This document shows, piece after piece, positions 25,811 to 34,859 of a stretch of DNA of 64,000 nucleotides (position 1 is the stretch's first letter; each line of letters opens with the position of its first letter). The stretch covers positions 54,042 to 118,041 of the forward strand of contig JBBQRF010000001.1 in the NCBI GenBank assembly GCA_038215155.1, given 5' to 3'. The notes under the pieces are model-generated. The model saw only the letters and a program-made list of their open reading frames with translations. It was not told the DNA's origin and ran no database searches. The position numbers and the translations under genes were made by a program. Source of the DNA: Minisyncoccia bacterium (GTDB taxonomy: Bacteria > Patescibacteriota > Minisyncoccia > Phycocordibacterales > CAJBRS01).

Positions 25811-27409
25811 TTATGCTGCTGGCAGTTCTACCCAAAATGTAGATCCTTTCCCGGTTCCTTCTGATTCTGCCCAAATGCGGCCTTTGTGAGCTTCCACAAT
25901 TTCCTTGGCGATGAAGAGGCCGTAGCCGGTGCTGTTGACGTTGACCTTGGTGGATTCTTTGCCACGACCACCTTCAGTAAAGAGCCGTTTCTTATCTTCT
26001 TCGGTAATGCCCACACCCGTGTCTTTTATACTAAAAAATATTTTCCCATCTTTTTTAGCCAATGAGATTTTCAAGCCACCCTTCAGGGTGTATTTAATAG
26101 AGTTATCAATCAGATTCCCCACGACATGTTGACTGAGTTGATCTCGATCGCCAATGGTGGTGAAATCGACATCTCCCGGAATAATAGTCTCCAATGTCAG
26201 ATTTTTATTTCGAGCCTCCTTTGTGTGTCCCTCAATCTGATCAACGACTACTTTTCGGAAATCAAAAGACTCTCGTTTATATGTAACTGTTCCCTTCTTT
26301 AAGTTAGCGGCGCTTAAGATACTCATTACTGTCTCTACTCCCTCCTGATTATCTCTAAGCCCTTCTTTGGCGACAGATTTAATAGAATCAGGAGTCTCAC
26401 CAAAATCCCCTTCAAGTATTCCAGCAAAAGCAGCCTTACTCTTGGTCAAGTATCCCTTGATTTGATGGCTGACGAAATGAATCAGACCTTCCTGGCGGTC
26501 ATTGGCAAGTTGTAATTCACTGGCCAAATGTTCAATCTTCTCGCGCTGCTCTACCTCGCGCAAAACTCCTCGAATGAGATTGATTCCAAAAATTAAAACT
26601 AAAATAAAAATACTGCTTCGAAATATAATTAATGAAGCAGTATTGGCAAAGATTATTTCGATAAAACTTACGAGAGCTAAGAAAAAAGTAATTATTGCAG
26701 TGCTAACCACTTTTACATTAAATAAATGATGTCGAGCTATGGCATAGGCGGTAAAAAGAACAAATGGAAAAACGAAAAGGGCGCTCAGGGGTATGAACCT
26801 TGTGTTGTTTAATAGCGTAGGAAAAATTAAATTAAAAACAATTATCAAAGTAAACATGATGCTCACGCCCGAAAGCAAAAGAGTAAATTGTTTTCTTTCG
26901 ATTCCGCCTGCTATACCTCTTTTTTTTACCATTAAGAAAATCCCGTTTCCTACTAAAGACACTGCTAATATTACAAACAACAAAATACCGGGTGCTGCTA
27001 TGGGTTGCGACACAGTGCCTAATGGTGCCGCTTTAATACCAGAATAGACAAAAGGAGTCAACGTTAACAAAGCAGTGCCCAAAACAGCGAGCTTTAAATG
27101 TCTTCTATATTTAGAGGTAAATGTAAACGTGGTGTTAGGAAAGACAGACATAAGCTTATAAAAAAAATATGCCTGAAAAATAGCAAAAAATAACACTAAT
27201 TTAATCAGAAACAAGACTAATGAAATATTGGCAACTTGGTAGTTTAAATAACTTACGACTCCCCATAACATAGTGCTAACAGAAAAACCCAAAAAGTATT
27301 TATTTGTGATGCTTTTTGGGTTACTAAAATAAATTACCGAGCCCAAAATTCCCGTACTTGCAACGACAAAACCAACAGACAAAAGATCAAAATTATGGAA
27401 CGAAGACAT
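25811..27409 (-). CDS. sensor histidine kinase with polytopic (about 7 TM) input domain
   Basis: 532 aa; about 300-aa hydrophobic N-terminus with no large periplasmic loop; H-box HFVSHQIKGYL; N-box GNLIDNSIKYT; G1 DTGVGI; G2 GYGLFIAKEIVEAHKG. No response-regulator gene in the window. Confidence 0.85.
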   Translation of the reverse strand: MSSFHNFDLLSVGFVVASTGILGSVIYFSNPKSITNKYFLGFSVSTMLWGVVSYLNYQVANISLVLFLIKLVLFFAIFQAYFFYKLMSVFPNTTFTFTSKYRRHLKLAVLGTALLTLTPFVYSGIKAAPLGTVSQPIAAPGILLFVILAVSLVGNGIFLMVKKRGIAGGIERKQFTLLLSGVSIMFTLIIVFNLIFPTLLNNTRFIPLSALFVFPFVLFTAYAIARHHLFNVKVVSTAIITFFLALVSFIEIIFANTASLIIFRSSIFILVLIFGINLIRGVLREVEQREKIEHLASELQLANDRQEGLIHFVSHQIKGYLTKSKAAFAGILEGDFGETPDSIKSVAKEGLRDNQEGVETVMSILSAANLKKGTVTYKRESFDFRKVVVDQIEGHTKEARNKNLTLETIIPGDVDFTTIGDRDQLSQHVVGNLIDNSIKYTLKGGLKISLAKKDGKIFFSIKDTGVGITEEDKKRLFTEGGRGKESTKVNVNSTGYGLFIAKEIVEAHKGRIWAESEGTGKGSTFWVELPAA

Positions 27410-27424
27410 TTGTGTAAAATTATA

Positions 27425-28453
27425 TCAGTTTTTTAAAACGTCTGAAACCGAAAGACGCGGACTATGTGGTTGCGAAGTGATTGCGCGGCCTACTCGAAAT
27501 ATAAATTGACTATGAAAACCGGGCTTTATAAAAAAATTTAATTTTTCTCGATAATTCGGAGACAAGATGGGTGCTGCCCATACTGCCGTTTTTAAATTGA
27601 ATTGTTCTGCAATTAAGGCGATTCTTTCATAGCATTCCCCCACCTTTATCCAATCAACTTTTGTATCCGTCATGGAACTTAACAAAATATAAGCTGGAGT
27701 ACCGTCAGTGAGTATTTTTAAAGTCGAAGACTTATTAAGGCGATCCATATTAAAAAATTTTACTAAATTAGGAACAATAAAAGATGGTAATAGAGGTATA
27801 CCCATCCCAAATGCAGGGATACCAATTTTGGATTTTGTTATATTATTTTTCACATATGGACTGAGTTCTCGTCGAAATTTTGAATTGTCCATTAATTCTA
27901 TATTTGAACTAACTATTATATCCGCAATTCCCTCTTTATCTGTATGGCCGTCAACAACGTTTATATTCATCTTAGGATTATCCAACTGAGAAAGTGCTTC
28001 TCTAAATTCTATAGAAAGTGGCTCCCTATGATAATTACTACGATTTACAGATCTTTTTACAATTGAAAAAATCAAGTGAGAAGAATTTTTTCGTATTGCG
28101 GTTTCGTCGAAACGAATGATGGCGACTAGATTTTCATGTATTGCATCAGGAAGATAAGAGACGTCGTATGATAGGCCGTAGTAATCTGCGGCTACACGTA
28201 TGTTTTCGATAGCACACCCCAAATTCATCAATAATAATCTATTATCAGGGTCACCCACCTTTAATTTTCGGAGAGAATTTTGGTAAATAAAAATACTTTG
28301 GTCGCGTATTTCAAAAATCCATGGCTGACTGTTATGACTCGAGGGCGCTAGAACTGCAAAATTAATTAGGAAATGTAATTTTTCTTTCCACGTGCGGCAC
28401 TCTTCGTATTTAGCAAAGTCAATGTCCCAAGGTTTATAATTTTCCTTTTCCAT
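27425..28453 (-). CDS. two-domain nitroreductase-family flavoprotein (SagB/Acg-like?)
   Basis: About 342 aa from ATG 28453. APSSHNSQPW is the nitroreductase-family FMN-binding motif. Its length implies a tandem or two-lobed nitroreductase fold. Confidence 0.6.
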   Translation of the reverse strand: MEKENYKPWDIDFAKYEECRTWKEKLHFLINFAVLAPSSHNSQPWIFEIRDQSIFIYQNSLRKLKVGDPDNRLLLMNLGCAIENIRVAADYYGLSYDVSYLPDAIHENLVAIIRFDETAIRKNSSHLIFSIVKRSVNRSNYHREPLSIEFREALSQLDNPKMNINVVDGHTDKEGIADIIVSSNIELMDNSKFRRELSPYVKNNITKSKIGIPAFGMGIPLLPSFIVPNLVKFFNMDRLNKSSTLKILTDGTPAYILLSSMTDTKVDWIKVGECYERIALIAEQFNLKTAVWAAPILSPNYREKLNFFIKPGFHSQFIFRVGRAITSQPHSPRLSVSDVLKN

Positions 28454-28457
28454 ATAA

Positions 28458-29870
28458 TTATTTTTTAACCCACCGTTGTTTGCCTTGTGAATTAAAATAT
28501 TTTGAATGTTGGTAAGGCCACCCAATAATTAACGGAATTACTTTTGAGGGTTCGGTTGAATAAAGATAAGCATATTCTGAATTGTGAGTTCGCAAACCCA
28601 GTATTATAGATTCGGTAATTTGTTTTTTTAATTTGGGATTCCAGCGTATTCCTTTTTTAAGTTCAACGTGTATTTCCAGTATTCTATCCATTTTTTTGTT
28701 CTCACGTTTCATCATGGTAGCCTTTCCTGTTAGATAGCGATTTAAAGGATAGCTGTCGATAATAGACCTAATTTCCTCCGGATAAATGTTTGCACCTCTA
28801 AAAACCATACCTAAGTCTGACCGTGCATAGACATAAACAAAGGGCAACTTTAATATTTGATCAAATATTTTATATTTTAAAATTTCCTTCTCGATACTAA
28901 TTCCACTTTTTTTTAACTTTCTCATCATTTCGTCATAAGTAATCACACCCCCAAGATCTGCAAACTCGTAACGAATAAGCGGAATAGAAGAGCCATAATT
29001 AGTGGCTACTACTTTTTTTCCAACCTCCTCAAAAAAAATACTTTGCGGGTAATATTGACCTATTGTCGGAATATTGGTGGCATGTGGAAAGATGGATAAA
29101 AAAACTTTCGGATTTTCATTGGCAATTTTTCGGATTAAGTTAGACAAGGATGTTTCATGCGCAATCGTTCCTTGTTCAACGGTACCGTAAATATTGATAA
29201 TATCGTTTAAAGGGTTTTTTAACCCAGATTTTTTGACAATATAATTGCGGAATTCCTCGGAATACCCTTCCGCAGCAGTTAAAATACGTAAATTATGTTT
29301 AGACCAATGAATGCCTGCCTCCTTTCCACTATCTAAAATATCTTTTATGAAAGGTGGGTAGCCCATCAAGATAACTTGATCATAAAAAGGAGCGAACTTT
29401 TTAAACGACTGAAGATATAACTCTTTGTTTGTGCCGACCGGTACAAGTGTAAAATCATAACCTTTCTGGGCAATTTTGTTGAAATTCTTGTAGGTAAAGA
29501 TGCCGCCAATCCAAATACCAAGTCCAAAGCCCACTATGCCTAGGGTGCGCTTCTTATCTAATTCAAATTGATTGATTAAAAAAATCTCCGATGCGTGCTC
29601 ATATTGACGATCGTGGTCCTCATCGCGCGGAAAGAAAAAAGGCTCACCAGTAGATCCTGAAGTGGCTGAGATTGTCGTTGCCACGGAGACATCTCGATTT
29701 GGAAAAAGGTCAAGATAATCGTGGCTACGGAGATAAGCGTCCTTTGAAAGAAGCGGTAGTTTATGAAAATCCTTGATAGTGGAAATCCGTCCCTTGAATC
29801 CTTGTTTTCTAATAAATTGGCGATAGGCGGGAACGGTTTCGTAAACATACTTAAATAAATTTATAGCCAT
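28458..29870 (-). CDS. PaaK/F390-synthetase-like adenylate-forming enzyme
   Basis: About 470 aa from ATG 29870, preceded by AGGGGGAAAAT. SATSGSTGEPFFFPR resembles the PaaK-family AMP-binding motif. An in-frame open extension upstream (possible starts at 29987/30023) leaves the start uncertain. Confidence 0.55.
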   Translation of the reverse strand: MAINLFKYVYETVPAYRQFIRKQGFKGRISTIKDFHKLPLLSKDAYLRSHDYLDLFPNRDVSVATTISATSGSTGEPFFFPRDEDHDRQYEHASEIFLINQFELDKKRTLGIVGFGLGIWIGGIFTYKNFNKIAQKGYDFTLVPVGTNKELYLQSFKKFAPFYDQVILMGYPPFIKDILDSGKEAGIHWSKHNLRILTAAEGYSEEFRNYIVKKSGLKNPLNDIINIYGTVEQGTIAHETSLSNLIRKIANENPKVFLSIFPHATNIPTIGQYYPQSIFFEEVGKKVVATNYGSSIPLIRYEFADLGGVITYDEMMRKLKKSGISIEKEILKYKIFDQILKLPFVYVYARSDLGMVFRGANIYPEEIRSIIDSYPLNRYLTGKATMMKRENKKMDRILEIHVELKKGIRWNPKLKKQITESIILGLRTHNSEYAYLYSTEPSKVIPLIIGWPYQHSKYFNSQGKQRWVKK

Positions 29871-29979
29871 ATTTTCCCCCTGCCTCTTCCAATATGCTGC
29901 GGGCCGTCTTTTGTAATATGCCAAAGATTTCTCAATCTTGGGAGGAACGAAGTGGGCAAATTTATTTTTCTTTTTGGGG

Positions 29980-31068
29980 CTAGGCATAGGAATTAAAAAT
30001 CTTTTCGGCCATGATATTGGCAATAATATTAGGCGCGGTATTTTCTTTTTTGCTTTTTCTTAAAATATTTTGAAGGGTGTTAGGGATTTCCAACACTTGT
30101 TTTAGTACTTTATTTTCACGATATGTCTTATTCTTAAATTCATCGAAAACAGCAATGAGGCCGCCGGCATTAATGACGTAGTCGGGCGCGTATAGAATAT
30201 CCAATTTGTGGAGCAGTACTCCGATATTTTCATTGGCTAATTGGTTGTTGGCACTACCGGCTATGATTTTAGCTCTAATTTCGGTAATAGTCATTGAGCT
30301 AAGGGAGCCGCTCAGGGCACACGGAGAGAAGACGTCGACATTTTGTTTATGAATTTCTTCCGGCTTTACTATAATCACTTTTGGAAATTTGCGGCGGCAA
30401 AGAGCAATGGCTTTTGGATCGATGTCAGCTCCATAAATTTTCCCCGCTTCAATTCCAGATTTCTTCATTTCTTTCTCAATCAAGGTAAGAAGGGCGTTTC
30501 CAACCTTACCTAACCCTTGGATAGCGAAACTCCTTCCTTCAAAAGAGGTATTGCCATAAATCTCTTTTAAGCAAACTTTTATTGATTCGAAAATGCCGAC
30601 TGCTGTTAAAAAGGTGGCATTGTCATTGAAACCGACTATTTGATTTTTAGCAGCCTTCATTGAATTGAGGTCGCGTCTAAAGACGCCGGCATCCGTCCCG
30701 GTGACGAAGTGAGTAGAGAGAAAGGCTACTTTTTCGGCGTAACTTCTGAAGAGCTCCTTTCGCTTTTTTTCATCTCTATTCCCCACCTTATCAATGATCA
30801 CTCCCTTGGCGCCGCCACAATCAAGTCCTGCCATGGCGGATTTATATGACATAAGGCGAGATAAGCGAAGAGCATCCTGAAGTGCCTCGTTCAGTGAGCC
30901 GTATTGCCACAAACGTGTAGCGCCGAAAGATGGAATGGAAGGATTAGAACGATGAATAACAATAAATCCTTCTAGTCCGGAAGCTTCATCCTGAAGGTAG
31001 GCCACGAAACGATGATCATCAAACTCTGAAAAATCCTTTATGCTTTTTTCAGCTAAAAAGTCGGGCAT
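29980..31068 (-). CDS. Glu/Leu/Phe/Val amino-acid dehydrogenase family (Leu/Phe-DH-like)
   Basis: 362 aa; GATRLWQYGSLNEALQDALRLSRLMSYKSAMAGLDCGGAKGVI matches the LeuDH/PheDH substrate/catalytic-Lys region (GGTRMW...GGGK); Rossmann GLGKVG. Confidence 0.75.
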   Translation of the reverse strand: MPDFLAEKSIKDFSEFDDHRFVAYLQDEASGLEGFIVIHRSNPSIPSFGATRLWQYGSLNEALQDALRLSRLMSYKSAMAGLDCGGAKGVIIDKVGNRDEKKRKELFRSYAEKVAFLSTHFVTGTDAGVFRRDLNSMKAAKNQIVGFNDNATFLTAVGIFESIKVCLKEIYGNTSFEGRSFAIQGLGKVGNALLTLIEKEMKKSGIEAGKIYGADIDPKAIALCRRKFPKVIIVKPEEIHKQNVDVFSPCALSGSLSSMTITEIRAKIIAGSANNQLANENIGVLLHKLDILYAPDYVINAGGLIAVFDEFKNKTYRENKVLKQVLEIPNTLQNILRKSKKENTAPNIIANIMAEKIFNSYA

Positions 31069-31073
31069 AGTGT

Positions 31074-32153
31074 TTAAGCGTGAGTTGAATGAGTAATGTC
31101 TGTGGGTGAAATATAACTTCGAATATCTAAATCAGTACTTTCTCCAGAGACGACTTTCTTCAGCATGGCAGTTACGACGACGCCGCCTAAAATTGCGGCG
31201 GAGCCAAGCTGAGGCCAAGAAACAAGTTCCTTGGAAATTACACGGGGTACAGCCATCATCATGTTGGGGTCCACTTTGTCGGGTCCTCCGACAATATCTC
31301 CGATAATCATTTTGCCCGCCATTTCTTTAGTGAAAGGGCCAGCAGCCAATTTCTTTTTAAAATATTCGACGTCTTTGCCCCATATCTTGGTGTTGCCTAA
31401 ATCGTATCTTTCAACATGGAGAACTACGCCGTCGCCATTATCGGTCACCATTAATACGGCTTTTTTATATTTTATGGCAAGGAGGCGGGCATGAATTTTA
31501 AATGGCATATCATCAATTTCCTCAACAATGCAGTCAATCTTCCCCGCTTTCAATAATTCTTCTAAGTTATCTTCGTTTACGCCATCTTTCAATAACGTTA
31601 CTTCCGCAAAAGGATTGTCTTCGTAGATGCGGCGAGCGGCAATGATGGTCTTGTTGATACCTATCTGATGAGCACCTGCTAAGATTCTGTTTAAATTAGT
31701 GGTGTCGAGCTCGTCGAAATCAGCTAAGACGATCTTATTTGAGATTCCAGCTTGAGTCATGACGAAAGCAATGTTAGAGCCAACACTCATTCCAAGGACA
31801 GCTACTTTATAATCCCGTAATTTTTTCTGAAGATCGGGTGATATTAGTCCGTCGTTTCTGTTAGTCTTCAGGCGATAGTAGTTGTCGGCTTTAACTGTTT
31901 TGATTAAATGATGATTCCATGGGAAATAAACGTGAATAAAATCGTCCTTTTTATCATCGGTGTATTTTTTGAAGTCATCGGTCTTGTAGACTTCTTCTTT
32001 GTCTTGGCCGATGAATGAATGATTATCAATAAAGAACAATTCTTTTAGCTGACGATCAAAAGCGTCAACAACAGTGATATAGGAGTGCTGATTTAGAAAT
32101 TCTTCTACCTTCTCCGAGCTTTCAAAATAAAGCGGTTTTTCAGAAGTGTCCAT
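31074..32153 (-). CDS. E1-like (ThiF/MoeB/MccB superfamily) adenylyltransferase with N-terminal extension
   Basis: 359 aa; KVAVLGMSVGSNIAFVMTQAGI...IVLADFDELDTTNLNR matches the E1 nucleotide-binding fold (GxGxxG ... D.D.V..SNLNRQ). It has about 110 aa N-terminal and about 100 aa C-terminal extensions and no CxxC zinc motif. Confidence 0.7.
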   Translation of the reverse strand: MDTSEKPLYFESSEKVEEFLNQHSYITVVDAFDRQLKELFFIDNHSFIGQDKEEVYKTDDFKKYTDDKKDDFIHVYFPWNHHLIKTVKADNYYRLKTNRNDGLISPDLQKKLRDYKVAVLGMSVGSNIAFVMTQAGISNKIVLADFDELDTTNLNRILAGAHQIGINKTIIAARRIYEDNPFAEVTLLKDGVNEDNLEELLKAGKIDCIVEEIDDMPFKIHARLLAIKYKKAVLMVTDNGDGVVLHVERYDLGNTKIWGKDVEYFKKKLAAGPFTKEMAGKMIIGDIVGGPDKVDPNMMMAVPRVISKELVSWPQLGSAAILGGVVVTAMLKKVVSGESTDLDIRSYISPTDITHSTHA

Positions 32154-32273: not shown

Positions 32274-32789
32274 CTAGTCTTTCCTTTTAAAAATAAACCT
32301 AATAATATGCCAAAATTTAACTTCCCCTCTCATGGTCTTACCATATCCCTCGGTGACGGATTTTTCGATGAGAGATAGGTTAAGAGAATCAATACAAGGA
32401 AGGATTTCCGGAAGATCGAAAAATGACATATTTTTATTGCCCATCCACTCGTCATGGGGACCGAAAAGGCTGAAATACATTACTCCATTAAGAGCTAATC
32501 CCTTTGACATATTAGCCAATATTTTCTTGACCTTTTCTTTATCGGAAATGAAAGAGAGGGTGTTATTGCAGATAATAACATTATATTTTTCAGGTTCGAT
32601 GTGAAAGTTCGTTATATCTGTTCTAATTGCTGATCTATATTCACTCCGAACATCTACGGAAATGACTTTGTAACCAAGTTTTTTAAAATACTCGGAATCA
32701 TCACCTGCTCCACACCCTAGATCAAGCATGTTACCGCTGTCTTTGATCAAGTCGAGCTCGATCATTTTGTTTATATAATGTTTTACCAT
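32274..32789 (-). CDS. class I SAM-dependent methyltransferase
   Basis: 171 aa; motif I LDLGCGAGDDS, followed by acidic post-I VISVDV. Confidence 0.7.
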   Translation of the reverse strand: MVKHYINKMIELDLIKDSGNMLDLGCGAGDDSEYFKKLGYKVISVDVRSEYRSAIRTDITNFHIEPEKYNVIICNNTLSFISDKEKVKKILANMSKGLALNGVMYFSLFGPHDEWMGNKNMSFFDLPEILPCIDSLNLSLIEKSVTEGYGKTMRGEVKFWHIIRFIFKRKD

Positions 32790-32796
32790 TTTGCTT

Positions 32797-32841
32797 ATTT
32801 AAAAAATTGCCCGTACTACTTGTTATGGTGAGCACGGGCAA
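32797..32841 (-). terminator. hairpin terminator after the Cys-rich protein gene
   Basis: ttgcccgt-(19 nt)-acgggcaa stem; on the minus strand it is followed by attttttaaataa. It separates the 32861..33376 gene from the methyltransferase gene. Confidence 0.5.
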
Positions 32842-32860
32842 TTGAGTGGTTATAGACAGA

Positions 32861-33376
32861 CTACGTGTTGGCGCAGTTGTGGCAACTCTTGCAGGACATA
32901 CATGAACCACAATCGCCACTTGGTTCTCCGGAATTACCCCAATTTTCGGAGATGACACCGAAAGTTGAGACTGCGACTGATGCCGCATTCAGGACTTTCC
33001 CTTCAAGTGATTCTCCACGACGACGCGGGCGATGATGGATGAAACGTCCAAATCTGGTTAAGCAAAACTCCTCGTAATCCAGAGTGAACAGGATGAAGTT
33101 ATGCCACATCTCATCAATCTTCGGTGGAGGAGCTATGGGCGTCGTGTTGGTAGCGCAGAGATACAAATATAGTTTTGTATCCTCGAAGCAGTGTACTGCA
33201 TCCTCTTCTTTCCATCCGTACTTATCCACCATGCGATGAATCAACGGAAGGAAAATGAATGCCAGAACATACTTAAGATCGACTCGAGACGCTGACTGAT
33301 CGTTAATCTCTCTGTCTTCTTTATCGGCCCGTGTACGCTTCGCACCCGTTTTAGGGGGTACAGCTATTGTTTTCAT
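32861..33376 (-). CDS. hypothetical protein with periodic-Cys C-terminal tail (candidate modified-peptide precursor)
   Basis: 171 aa; C-terminal GEPSGDCGSCMSCKSCHNCANT has Cys every third residue (C-xx-C-xx-C-xx-C-xx-C). Monocistronic, with its own terminator; divergent from the M16 peptidase gene. Confidence 0.5.
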   Translation of the reverse strand: MKTIAVPPKTGAKRTRADKEDREINDQSASRVDLKYVLAFIFLPLIHRMVDKYGWKEEDAVHCFEDTKLYLYLCATNTTPIAPPPKIDEMWHNFILFTLDYEEFCLTRFGRFIHHRPRRRGESLEGKVLNAASVAVSTFGVISENWGNSGEPSGDCGSCMSCKSCHNCANT

Positions 33377-33650
33377 AATGAACCTTTCTTTTTTGTGTGT
33401 TCGATTTGAGTTAACACAATCTGGAATTAGTATAATAAAGAAAAGTGATAAGTCAAGTAGTTATTAGAGGCTGGGGTATTTATTAGCTTAGCTTCATAAA
33501 AAAGGATTCTGACCCCTTAATGACGTTTTTTCTGCTTTAGCTTTAGCTGGAGGCATTTAGTGTTTAACTTTTACTATAAGAATCCTCATTTACAAGGTTT
33601 TTTCATTTCACCTGTTAGACATTTTCAGTGGCAAACCTTATCATGTGTAA

Positions 33651-34859
33651 ATGAAAGAATTTCATCTGGAAGACATTCCTGTACGGTTTCACCAAAAAAA
33701 AGATGCTCCAATTTATATCAGAGTTCAGTTTTTGGCTGGAAGTCGCTTTGACGAAAAGGAAGGTACTGCCCACTTTCTAGAACATATGATGTGCGCAGGC
33801 AGCCAAAAATTTACCACCAAGAATTTATTGGCTGAATACATAGAAGCTGTGGGTGGAAATTTCGCCTTAAGCACTAGTAGTGATTATATTAATATTGATA
33901 TCCAGGTTCCGACAAAAGATGAGATGAAGATTGCGGTGGTGATATTAGATGAAATGGTGAATCATTCGCTTTTTGAGCCCGCAACCTTAGAGACTGAGAG
34001 GGGCTCAATCTTGTCCGAACAAGTTATAGCCAAAAATGCACAACGTTCTTATATTCATACAGTATTCAAGAAATTAGCCTATCAAAAAACTGATATTGCA
34101 AAAAATGTCCTCGGAACCAAGGAGTCTGTGATGACTATAACCACGGAGGATCTAAAAAAACACAGGACCAAATATATCCATAGGCAGACTTTAAAAATCT
34201 TAGTTGTGGGAGATATTAGTGAGGAAGAACTCATAAAGGAAATGCGAGGTATAAATTGGGCAACTGGTCCATGTTTTATCGTGGTTAATTTACCCATAGT
34301 AGCAAATCAATTATTTGTCCTTGAAATTTATAATTCAAAAGAGGCTACCCTTCGAGCCGGTTTTAGATTAAGTACTTTTGATATTAAGAATCGAATCTGT
34401 GGGGATATTCTCGCGGAGTTTTTAGGCAGTAGTCGAAGTGGCATTTTAAGTCAAGAACTGCGATATAAAAGAGGTCTGATCTATTCCGCTTCCGCACACC
34501 ATTTTCAATCGATTGATGGGGGTACTTTTTCTGTTACTACCTCCACCGAGGTTAAAAATTTTGCCGAAGTTTTGTCCGTCATTAAACAGATCATAGAAGA
34601 TCTGATCGCTCAGGGAATTCCCGCCTCCACATTGAAATATATAAAATCTAAAATATTAAAATCTATGAAAATAGATTTACAGACCTCTAAAGCTTGGGTG
34701 AATTATATTGAGAATTATGATTTAGAAGAAACAAGCAGATACTTAGAGGATATAAGTGAAGGGGATATAAAAAATTATATCAATCAAAATTTTGCTATAG
34801 ATAAATTTTTTGTGGCCGTGTGCGGTCCAGAAGATCTTAGGATGATTTTAGAAAAGTAG
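33651..34859 (+). CDS. M16-family zinc peptidase (insulinase/pitrilysin-like, single chain)
   Basis: 402 aa; inverted zinc motif HFLEHM (HxxEH) near the N-terminus; downstream Glu-rich LETERGSILSE. Confidence 0.75.
   Translation: MKEFHLEDIPVRFHQKKDAPIYIRVQFLAGSRFDEKEGTAHFLEHMMCAGSQKFTTKNLLAEYIEAVGGNFALSTSSDYINIDIQVPTKDEMKIAVVILDEMVNHSLFEPATLETERGSILSEQVIAKNAQRSYIHTVFKKLAYQKTDIAKNVLGTKESVMTITTEDLKKHRTKYIHRQTLKILVVGDISEEELIKEMRGINWATGPCFIVVNLPIVANQLFVLEIYNSKEATLRAGFRLSTFDIKNRICGDILAEFLGSSRSGILSQELRYKRGLIYSASAHHFQSIDGGTFSVTTSTEVKNFAEVLSVIKQIIEDLIAQGIPASTLKYIKSKILKSMKIDLQTSKAWVNYIENYDLEETSRYLEDISEGDIKNYINQNFAIDKFFVAVCGPEDLRMILEK

Follow-up and report, generated by a model that had tools for sequence, protein, structure and literature searches.

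Which function can be assigned to a small protein whose C-terminus carries a cysteine at every third residue? This question is raised by a gene for a 171-aa protein in a stretch of 64,000 nucleotides (in the following, the window) from a Minisyncoccia bacterium (Patescibacteriota; GenBank assembly GCA_038215155.1, contig JBBQRF010000001.1). A first-pass annotation, made from the sequence alone, had proposed either the core of an azol(in)e-containing peptide of the microcin B17/heterocycloanthracin type or a metal-binding tail on a metallochaperone-like protein. The gene is real, and its product, with a tail conserved among relatives, looks more like a metal- or thiol-handling protein than like the precursor of a thiazole antibiotic.

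The protein belongs to PF27765, a family that comprises more than 12,000 clusters at 50% identity and yet is without function, structure or literature. A sub-group of this family is characterized by a Cys-rich arm, a terminator that is probably leaky, and a dedicated small methyltransferase or acetyltransferase, and it is widespread in Patescibacteria, i.e., in bacteria whose genomes are small and poor in accessory genes. No description of such a module of Cys tail, hairpin, and methyltransferase or GNAT acetyltransferase was found in the literature. If the ligand or the modification of the arm were worked out, the whole family would be given a function, and the outcome would be either a new device for the handling of metals or metalloids or a new protein-modification system.

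Organization of the gene and its product

The open reading frame (ORF) reported in the first-pass annotation was recovered at 32861..33376 on the minus strand, with an ATG start, and encodes a member of PF27765 ('UCP032817-like'). Three parts can be distinguished in its product: the N-terminal residues 1-30 (33287..33376, minus strand), which are variable, unconserved and predicted to be disordered, with a mean predicted local distance difference test score (pLDDT) of 53-59; a conserved helical domain of residues 31-146 (32939..33286, minus strand) with an invariant motif and a confident AlphaFold model; and a Cys-rich tail of residues 147-171 (32864..32938, minus strand) with five Cys and a pLDDT <50. 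The product ends with GNSGEPSGDCGSCMSCKSCHNCANT, and the sequence of the tail is GDCGSCMSCKSCHNCANT. The Cys residues are situated at positions 156, 159, 162, 165 and 168, i.e., exactly at the period of three that had been noticed before. Such a run of five Cys is unique in the six-frame translation of the window, none of 200 shuffles produced one, and Cys constitutes 0.63% of the residues in long ORFs. The scaffold DCG[ST]CMSCK[SE]CN is preserved in the three nearest relatives (53-75% identity).

Concerning the signals around the gene, a sigma-70-like promoter site (TTGACT-16-TATACT; 10/12 matches, a consensus match only) is found 5' of the ORF at 33429..33456 on the minus strand, as expected from the promoter region claimed earlier. 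Between the ORF and the methyltransferase gene that follows it, an intrinsic-terminator-like hairpin (15 bp + U6; 32799..32843, minus strand) is located, with 15 paired bases at 32805..32843 and the U6 run at 32799..32804. Folding yielded a free energy of -21.5 kcal/mol (z -3.66), which was reached in none of 200 shuffles and which bears out the terminator previously placed at 32797-32841. A simple terminator scan with a loop limit of 3-8 nt did not pick up the hairpin at 32805..32843, probably because its apical region is larger than this limit. The description of the gene as monocistronic is appropriate insofar as the gene possesses a terminator of its own, but it needs to be qualified, since the methyltransferase gene on the same strand begins 71 nt downstream. 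As the pairing of the two genes, often with an intervening hairpin, is conserved in many genomes, the terminator between them is more likely leaky than absolute.

The PF27765 family and its helical domain

A protein database search yielded 34 homologues from metagenomic sources and metagenome-assembled genomes (MAGs), one of which (P0001) matches the window protein at 100% identity. A precomputed match to PF27765 (PF27765.1) exists for P0001 as well as for the 33 others, and the few source names given are of Patescibacteria type. When 1.84 billion representatives were searched with a profile, 12,708 clusters were obtained at E<=1e-3, a number that fell to 232 at E<=1e-30, family size being counted as clusters at 50% identity. 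The family, derived from PIRSF UCP032817, is catalogued in Pfam without an assigned function, and a literature search found no paper mentioning it. The names in the public records read 'hypothetical protein' except for one 'glycine-rich domain-containing protein' and one 'DUF4375', neither of which was reproduced by local Pfam scans. The window protein itself obtained no match in scans of NCBIfam, PADLOC and a copy of Pfam that does not contain the PF27765 model; likewise, PDB sequence searches, both with the single protein and with the profile, recovered no solved relative, such that the fold of the domain is one without a solved relative.

The homologues share the motif IDExWHNFILFTxDYxxFC...GRFIHHxP, and its core, D-E-x-W-H-N-F-I-L-F-T-x-x-Y-x-x-F-C...H-H-x-P, is also present in members from Bacteroidota, Shewanella and cyanobacteria. 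Invariant in the domain are D88, W91, H92, I95-T98, Y101, F104, C105, H115 and P117, with H114 being near-invariant; the domain furthermore carries the anchor motif FGxLSxNW. According to this conservation, a metal or active centre is probably made up of the invariant residues Asp-x3-His...Cys...His-His-x-Pro. AlphaFold predicts a confidently helical domain and a disordered tail in both of the two proteins modelled.

Two possible relationships were considered and rejected. A link to GRDP-like proteins (DUF1399, PF07173), suggested only by the one record named 'glycine-rich domain-containing protein' and by a similar WH...Y..C motif, could not be confirmed in lenient Pfam scans of 11 members, as neither the window protein nor 10 diverse members matched at E<=10; the literature on DUF1399 is restricted to plant physiology. 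For an origin from a defence system, PADLOC provided nothing specific.

Conservation and variation of the cysteine tail

In 172 of 181 close relatives, which are mostly from Patescibacteria, Cys residues occur within the last 32 residues, following the conserved FGxLSxNW anchor. Spacing and length of the tail vary, and several types recur, namely STNCQ, CSCSNWCQCS, CAPVACGHR, CDSCGCxxAC, and the CxxCxxCxxC of the window protein. At 70-100% identity of the domain, tail identity amounts to 0.70-0.96 and drops to background level only below 60%. Hence, when the alignment of homologues suggested in the first-pass annotation is carried out, the tail turns out to be conserved in its presence and variable in length and sequence, but not hypervariable between close relatives, as the core of a peptide made on the ribosome and then modified post-translationally (RiPP) had been supposed to be.

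Distant members of the family, mostly from Bacteroidota, but also from gamma-proteobacteria and cyanobacteria, retain the core motif without a Cys tail, in the place of which a helical YDxLGEETVxKWFxxYPxxYS extension is found. The Cys-rich stretch is, moreover, not bound to the C-terminus. A Cys-rich N-terminal arm exists additionally in 23 of 215 Cys-tailed members (about 10%), and in the tandem proteins P0035 (341 aa) and P0058 (291 aa) each copy of the domain is followed by a Cys stretch of its own, one of which is internal. Equally, in tail-less tandem members each domain copy bears its own helical extension. P0084 (370 aa) is a further tandem two-domain member. The N-terminal arms, the Cys stretches of the tandem proteins and the tracking of the domain by the tail argue, at the level of sequence, that the Cys stretch would function together with the domain and not as a detachable core.

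One might regard the tail as a low-complexity appendage without specific function, a compositional or structural quirk of the lineage, given that it is predicted to be disordered and that its sequence and length vary widely. This is, however, very improbable, since a residue as rare as Cys is kept in nearly all of the close relatives, each tandem copy retains its own Cys stretch, and the motifs GSCGPGVCGASTNCQ and CSCSNWCQCS are almost invariant between genera.

A subset of the relatives (e.g., P0018, P0005, P0010, P0027) contains the sequence [FY]xRxDG[ST]x[VIL], placed after the LSxNW anchor and before the first Cys, which the window protein does not have; imiditides make use of Asp-Gly, a dipeptide prone to aspartimide formation. 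An almost invariant tail, GSCGPG[VT]CGASTNCQ, with a GNAT gene after it, is found both in alphaproteobacterial chromosomes (L016, Sphingomonadaceae, on a 1.77-Mb contig; L019, Roseicyclus, on a 1.70-Mb contig; L018) and in MAGs of Saccharibacteria and other Patescibacteria (L015, L017, L021, L023, L025, L026), which suggests either a transfer between host and episymbiont or a mis-binning of contigs.

The methyltransferase partner

The gene downstream in the window (32274..32789, minus strand) encodes a class I S-adenosylmethionine (SAM) methyltransferase of likewise 171 aa, which is TehB-like and a conserved partner. Gene neighbourhoods were surveyed in 158 fetched loci, including 63 Cys-tailed genes with room downstream and 76 tail-less genes. 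The first gene downstream of the 63 Cys-tailed genes is a methyltransferase of the window type in 20, a second type of methyltransferase in four, and a GNAT gene in 12 cases, such that a methyltransferase comes first in 24 of the 63 (in 36 if GNAT is counted as well), compared with 4 of the 76 tail-less genes. Within 1.5 kb, a methyltransferase is present at 31 of the 63 Cys-tailed genes, whereas this applies to only 4 of the 76 tail-less genes. The pair may stand without peptidase or oxazolone-type genes nearby, as on the contig of P0004, with a helix-turn-helix (HTH) gene upstream, and at L160; the latter locus was found from the methyltransferase side, a relative of the enzyme at 50% identity being preceded by a gene of the family. 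A strong hairpin is situated between the two genes in most of 27 other loci, many of them with a U-run after it, and its recurrence suggests a surplus of the Cys-tailed protein relative to the enzyme. The type of the tail tracks the type of the enzyme, GSCGPGVCGASTNCQ occurring with GNAT, and CSCSNWCQCS and STNCQ with methyltransferase. Within PF27765, the Cys-rich tail and the partner gene, be it methyltransferase or GNAT, are confined to this one sub-group.

The best PDB matches of the methyltransferase are the TehB structures 3m70 and 2xva (E about 1e-15 to 1e-16), although the profile covers positions 15-112 only. Its score against Pfam TehB (29.3 bits) exceeds the cut-off of 20.4 bits, but its scores against the NCBIfam TehB equivalogs are far below theirs (see below), and generic methyltransferase models score equal to or above TehB. 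The tellurite/selenite methyltransferase TehB gives the best match in PDB and NCBIfam and is of similar size, but only the Rossmann part of the partner can be aligned.

Peptidases recur near the family without being constant, with M16 genes in the window, L010 and L013 (in the latter two just downstream of the family gene) and S9 genes in L003, L015, L017, L096 and L113. The regulators near the Patescibacteria loci are of XRE or TrmB type, and roughly 10 loci have a seven-transmembrane (7TM) histidine kinase close to the family gene. The neighbours of distant Cys-tailed members are unrelated, namely GroEL, JmjC, cyanate lyase, RelA/SpoT and an aerolysin-like protein.

The organization of this module resembles that of imiditides and cysimiditides, in which a precursor with Cys motifs is encoded together with a PIMT-type methyltransferase and Zn-(Cys)4 is needed for recognition (bioRxiv 10.1101/2024.10.02.616296). 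As in these systems, two genes, the first for a Cys-motif protein and the second for a methyltransferase, form a minimal module, often with an HTH regulator nearby. By analogy, the window protein might be a protein-sized, RiPP-like substrate: the target of the methyltransferase (or GNAT) would be the Cys tail, or else a residue that a metal-organised tail brings into position, and an M16 or S9 peptidase would trim or release the product in some genomes. The recurrent hairpin between an abundant 'substrate' gene and an enzyme gene, the pairing of tail type with enzyme type, the GNAT variants, the peptidases found repeatedly nearby, and the variability of the tail at moderate evolutionary distance would all agree with such a function.

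Despite this general similarity, there are several fundamental differences. The imiditide enzyme is a PIMT homologue, whereas the partner in the window is TehB-like and no PCMT/PIMT model is included among its Pfam and NCBIfam matches. Imiditide precursors possess two CxxCxGxG motifs flanking Asp-Gly, an arrangement that the window protein lacks. The hosts of imiditides are Actinomycetota, those of the present module Patescibacteria. Unlike in imiditides, the N-terminal part of the window protein is a conserved autonomous domain, and a 'leader' that is deeply conserved, contains catalytic-looking residues and exists free of a tail speaks against a substrate. The N-terminal and internal Cys stretches, the limited divergence of the tail between close relatives, and the frequent lack of a protease or exporter in the module point in the same direction, such that we consider a role as substrate, although it is the main rival of the binder function described below, unlikely. 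If it were true, this would be a modification system analogous to the cysimiditides but built from unrelated parts, with a previously unseen fold, and widespread in Patescibacteria.

A proposed binding function of the Cys-tailed protein

The function to which we give preference, though tentatively and with somewhat less than even confidence, is that of a cytoplasmic stoichiometric binder that would be coupled to the methyltransferase. Two parts make up the protein, a PF27765 domain, compact and helical, with its putative metal or active centre, and a flexible, thiolate-rich arm. The most likely ligand of the arm would be a soft metal, a metalloid or a cofactor of the Fe-S type, and the arm would act in cis with the domain instead of being excised as a peptide. 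In Patescibacteria, the tail-bearing form and the small TehB-like SAM methyltransferase constitute a conserved two-gene module, in which the leaky terminator would render the Cys-tailed protein far more abundant than the enzyme. The former would then serve as a stoichiometric binder or presenter, and the latter would act on the cargo of the arm, taken over by hand-over, or on the arm itself. A cytoplasmic location is inferred because the N-terminus of the window protein is hydrophilic on inspection of the sequence.

The metal-binding tail, which the first-pass annotation had mentioned as its second choice, fits the data better than the azole core, since arms occur at either end of the domain, the domain contains a putative metal site, the Cys spacing is tolerant of change, and the distant relatives are located in uptake operons; metal binding itself is a prediction from these features. 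The conserved motif and confident fold of the domain, a tail whose identity follows that of the domain, the preference of the methyltransferase for Cys-tailed members, the pair's occurrence without peptidase or oxazolone-type genes, the TehB chalcogen methyltransferases as nearest solved relatives of the enzyme, and the recurrent hairpins likewise speak for a binder. Fixed Fe-S motifs would typically tolerate such variation in Cys spacing less than metal-binding tails of the metallothionein-like kind. With such tails of metallothionein-like proteins and metallochaperones, and with FhuF-type clusters, the window protein shares a flexible end with 3-6 Cys on a helical domain and a free Cys spacing; a terminal cluster of at least three Cys, conserved in presence, is what characterizes metal-binding tails, and it is found here. 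There is, however, no relationship to these proteins in sequence or fold, and the C-C-x10-C-x2-C pattern of FhuF is absent.

The operons of the tail-less clade contain the family gene, a gene for a 306-aa protein, a TonB-dependent receptor, DUF4374, and ABC-2/DUF3526 or MATE transporters, and were seen at L034:9947-15377 and about 28 other Bacteroidota loci (e.g., L036, L044, L048). Operons of a TonB receptor, DUF4374, and ABC or MATE transporters are contexts of metal or siderophore uptake. The 306-aa protein, whose gene often abuts the upstream gene, had no match in Pfam, NCBIfam or PDB. Elsewhere, at 12 loci, the tail-less family gene has the gene for an S9-like alpha/beta hydrolase directly after it.

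Several observations weigh against the proposed binder function. Beside the Patescibacteria loci examined, there is neither a metal transporter nor a recognisable metal-responsive regulator. The tail is not docked on the domain in either AlphaFold model; in the second model, of a relative with a CTCSNWCQCS tail, the tail is likewise of low confidence and does not pack on the domain. A GNAT acetyltransferase stands in place of, or before, the methyltransferase in 12 loci, which a hand-over of metalloids does not explain. As regards the enzyme, methyltransferase relatives with an identity of about 25% do not have genes of the family beside them, and the NCBIfam TehB equivalogs give 25-34 bits compared with cut-offs of 218-303 bits; with scores so far under the family cut-offs, 'TehB-like' denotes a resemblance and not a membership.

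The azol(in)e reading and the neighbouring oxazolone-type block

The proposal of an azol(in)e-containing peptide, according to which neighbouring enzymes would convert the CxxC tail of a precursor to thiazol(in)es as in microcin B17 or heterocycloanthracin, is favoured by a tail with Cys or Ser at each third position. It could further draw on two genes that lie on the same strand at a distance of less than 5 kb, one for an E1-like protein and one for a flavoprotein of the nitroreductase family, and on an adjacent peptidase gene. The latter was confirmed as an M16 peptidase gene divergent from the ORF (33651..34859, plus strand); its association with the ORF is possible but weak.

The E1-like (ThiF-like) and nitroreductase genes belong to a block at 25811..32153 on the minus strand, in which they are accompanied by genes for an ELFV dehydrogenase, a PaaK-like ligase and a 7TM histidine kinase. 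A match to the N-terminal half of NF005901 (Rv1355c; E 5e-57) was obtained for the ThiF-like protein (31074..32153), and the nitroreductase (27425..28525) matches the Acg family and the C-terminal half of NF005901 (E 1e-19). Rv1355c (TrzS), OxzB and TyzBC are oxazolone synthetases, which cyclise and desaturate N-acyl aromatic amino acids (PMC12856293; bioRxiv 10.1101/2020.06.11.147165). The combination of ThiF and nitroreductase that marks oxazolone synthetase clusters is thus found in the window, with the two halves of Rv1355c split into two genes, and the ELFV enzyme of the block is Trp-dehydrogenase-like. An N-acyltransferase gene of the OxzA/TyzA/TrzA type was not found in the block, a PaaK-like adenylate-forming ligase being encoded instead. 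From these similarities, the block probably represents a separate oxazolone-type small-molecule cluster, and the PaaK-like enzyme in place of the N-acyltransferase that known oxazolone clusters use may constitute a new variant of oxazolone clusters in a Patescibacteria-type genome. The ORFs for the nitroreductase (27425-28525) and the PaaK-like enzyme (28458-30023), with TTG starts as listed, overlap by 68 nt; the real start of the nitroreductase probably lies further downstream.

The recognition of the ThiF and nitroreductase neighbours as oxazolone-synthetase type, and not as azole-peptide machinery, removes a false lead; the two match the maker of N-acyl amino-acid oxazolones (PMC12856293), and an E1-like partner with a SagB/McbC-type FMN dehydrogenase for the oxidation of peptide azolines was not found. 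Most homologous loci, furthermore, do not possess these two genes. Pfam and NCBIfam scans of 19 genes at 17.3-43.5 kb of the window, i.e., about 15 kb around the ORF, revealed no YcaO, and none was seen in the homologous loci; among the same 19 genes, no LanM/lanthionine synthetase or radical SAM gene was present either. The supposed leader is a folded domain of 116 residues that occurs in more than 12,000 clusters, many of them without a Cys tail, and Cys stretches exist at the N-terminus and after each tandem domain copy as well. We know of no precedent for a folded leader of 146 residues among azol(in)e RiPPs. In comparison with thiazole/oxazole-modified microcins, the likeness is thus confined to the periodic Cys/Ser of the tail and to the E1-like and nitroreductase-family genes nearby, whereas the lack of YcaO, the large folded 'leader', the neighbours of oxazolone-synthetase type and a tail that is not hypervariable at close range constitute the differences. 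The lack of YcaO, the Rv1355c-type neighbours and the autonomous domain leave the azole-peptide proposal of the first-pass annotation unsupported, and hardly any probability can be attached to it.

The same neighbours allow for a different function, in which the PF27765 domain would serve a small-molecule pathway (the neighbouring oxazolone pathway or the metabolism of a low-molecular-weight thiol) as an enzyme or accessory factor, with the methyltransferase, GNAT or hydrolase as tailoring enzymes and the tail as a redox, persulfide or Fe-S relay. The invariant polar residues resemble an active site, and the downstream enzyme differs by clade, being a methyltransferase, a GNAT, an S9-like hydrolase or the 306-aa protein. 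In addition to the window, where the pair lies beside the PaaK-like, ThiF, nitroreductase and kinase genes, the same gene set is found in other order beside the pair at L003:1193-6704 and L007:1790-7077, and the kinase recurs near the family as described above. We nevertheless regard such a pathway role as doubtful, as the oxazolone genes are present at only these three loci, the pair is also found without the PaaK-like, ThiF, nitroreductase and kinase genes, no relative of characterised function was found that would suggest a chemistry, and the variable Cys spacing speaks against a defined Fe-S site.

Genomic context of the module

The flanks of the locus in the window consist of housekeeping genes, i.e., those for aminoacyl-tRNA synthetases, ScpA, DnaK, DnaJ, GrpE and RpoA. 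A radical SAM gene directly 5' of the family gene exists only in the near-identical loci L015:7870-9336 and L113:7877-9421; being HemN/HemW-like by reading of its sequence, it was taken as incidental and not as a partner.

In L004:1-7073 and L005:1-7854, which have a 314-aa protein upstream in common, the pair adjoins phage-like genes (numerous small ORFs besides an SU10 adaptor, Gly_rich_2 and HNH). A phage origin of the family, suspected from these two contexts, was rejected, as a scan of IMG/VR gave no relatives.

The GC content of the ORF (32861-33376) is 0.46-0.49, compared with 0.33-0.36 in the adjacent methyltransferase gene (32274-32789). The nearest relative of the ORF (75-78% identity, L087) is located on a GC-rich contig with no methyltransferase alongside, and it adjoins genes judged by eye to be XRE-type HTH-like and ImmA/IrrE-like; at L019, a phage integrase gene lies 1 kb from the family gene. 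Taken together, the GC contrast, the context in L087 and the integrase at L019 provide hints of horizontal transfer.

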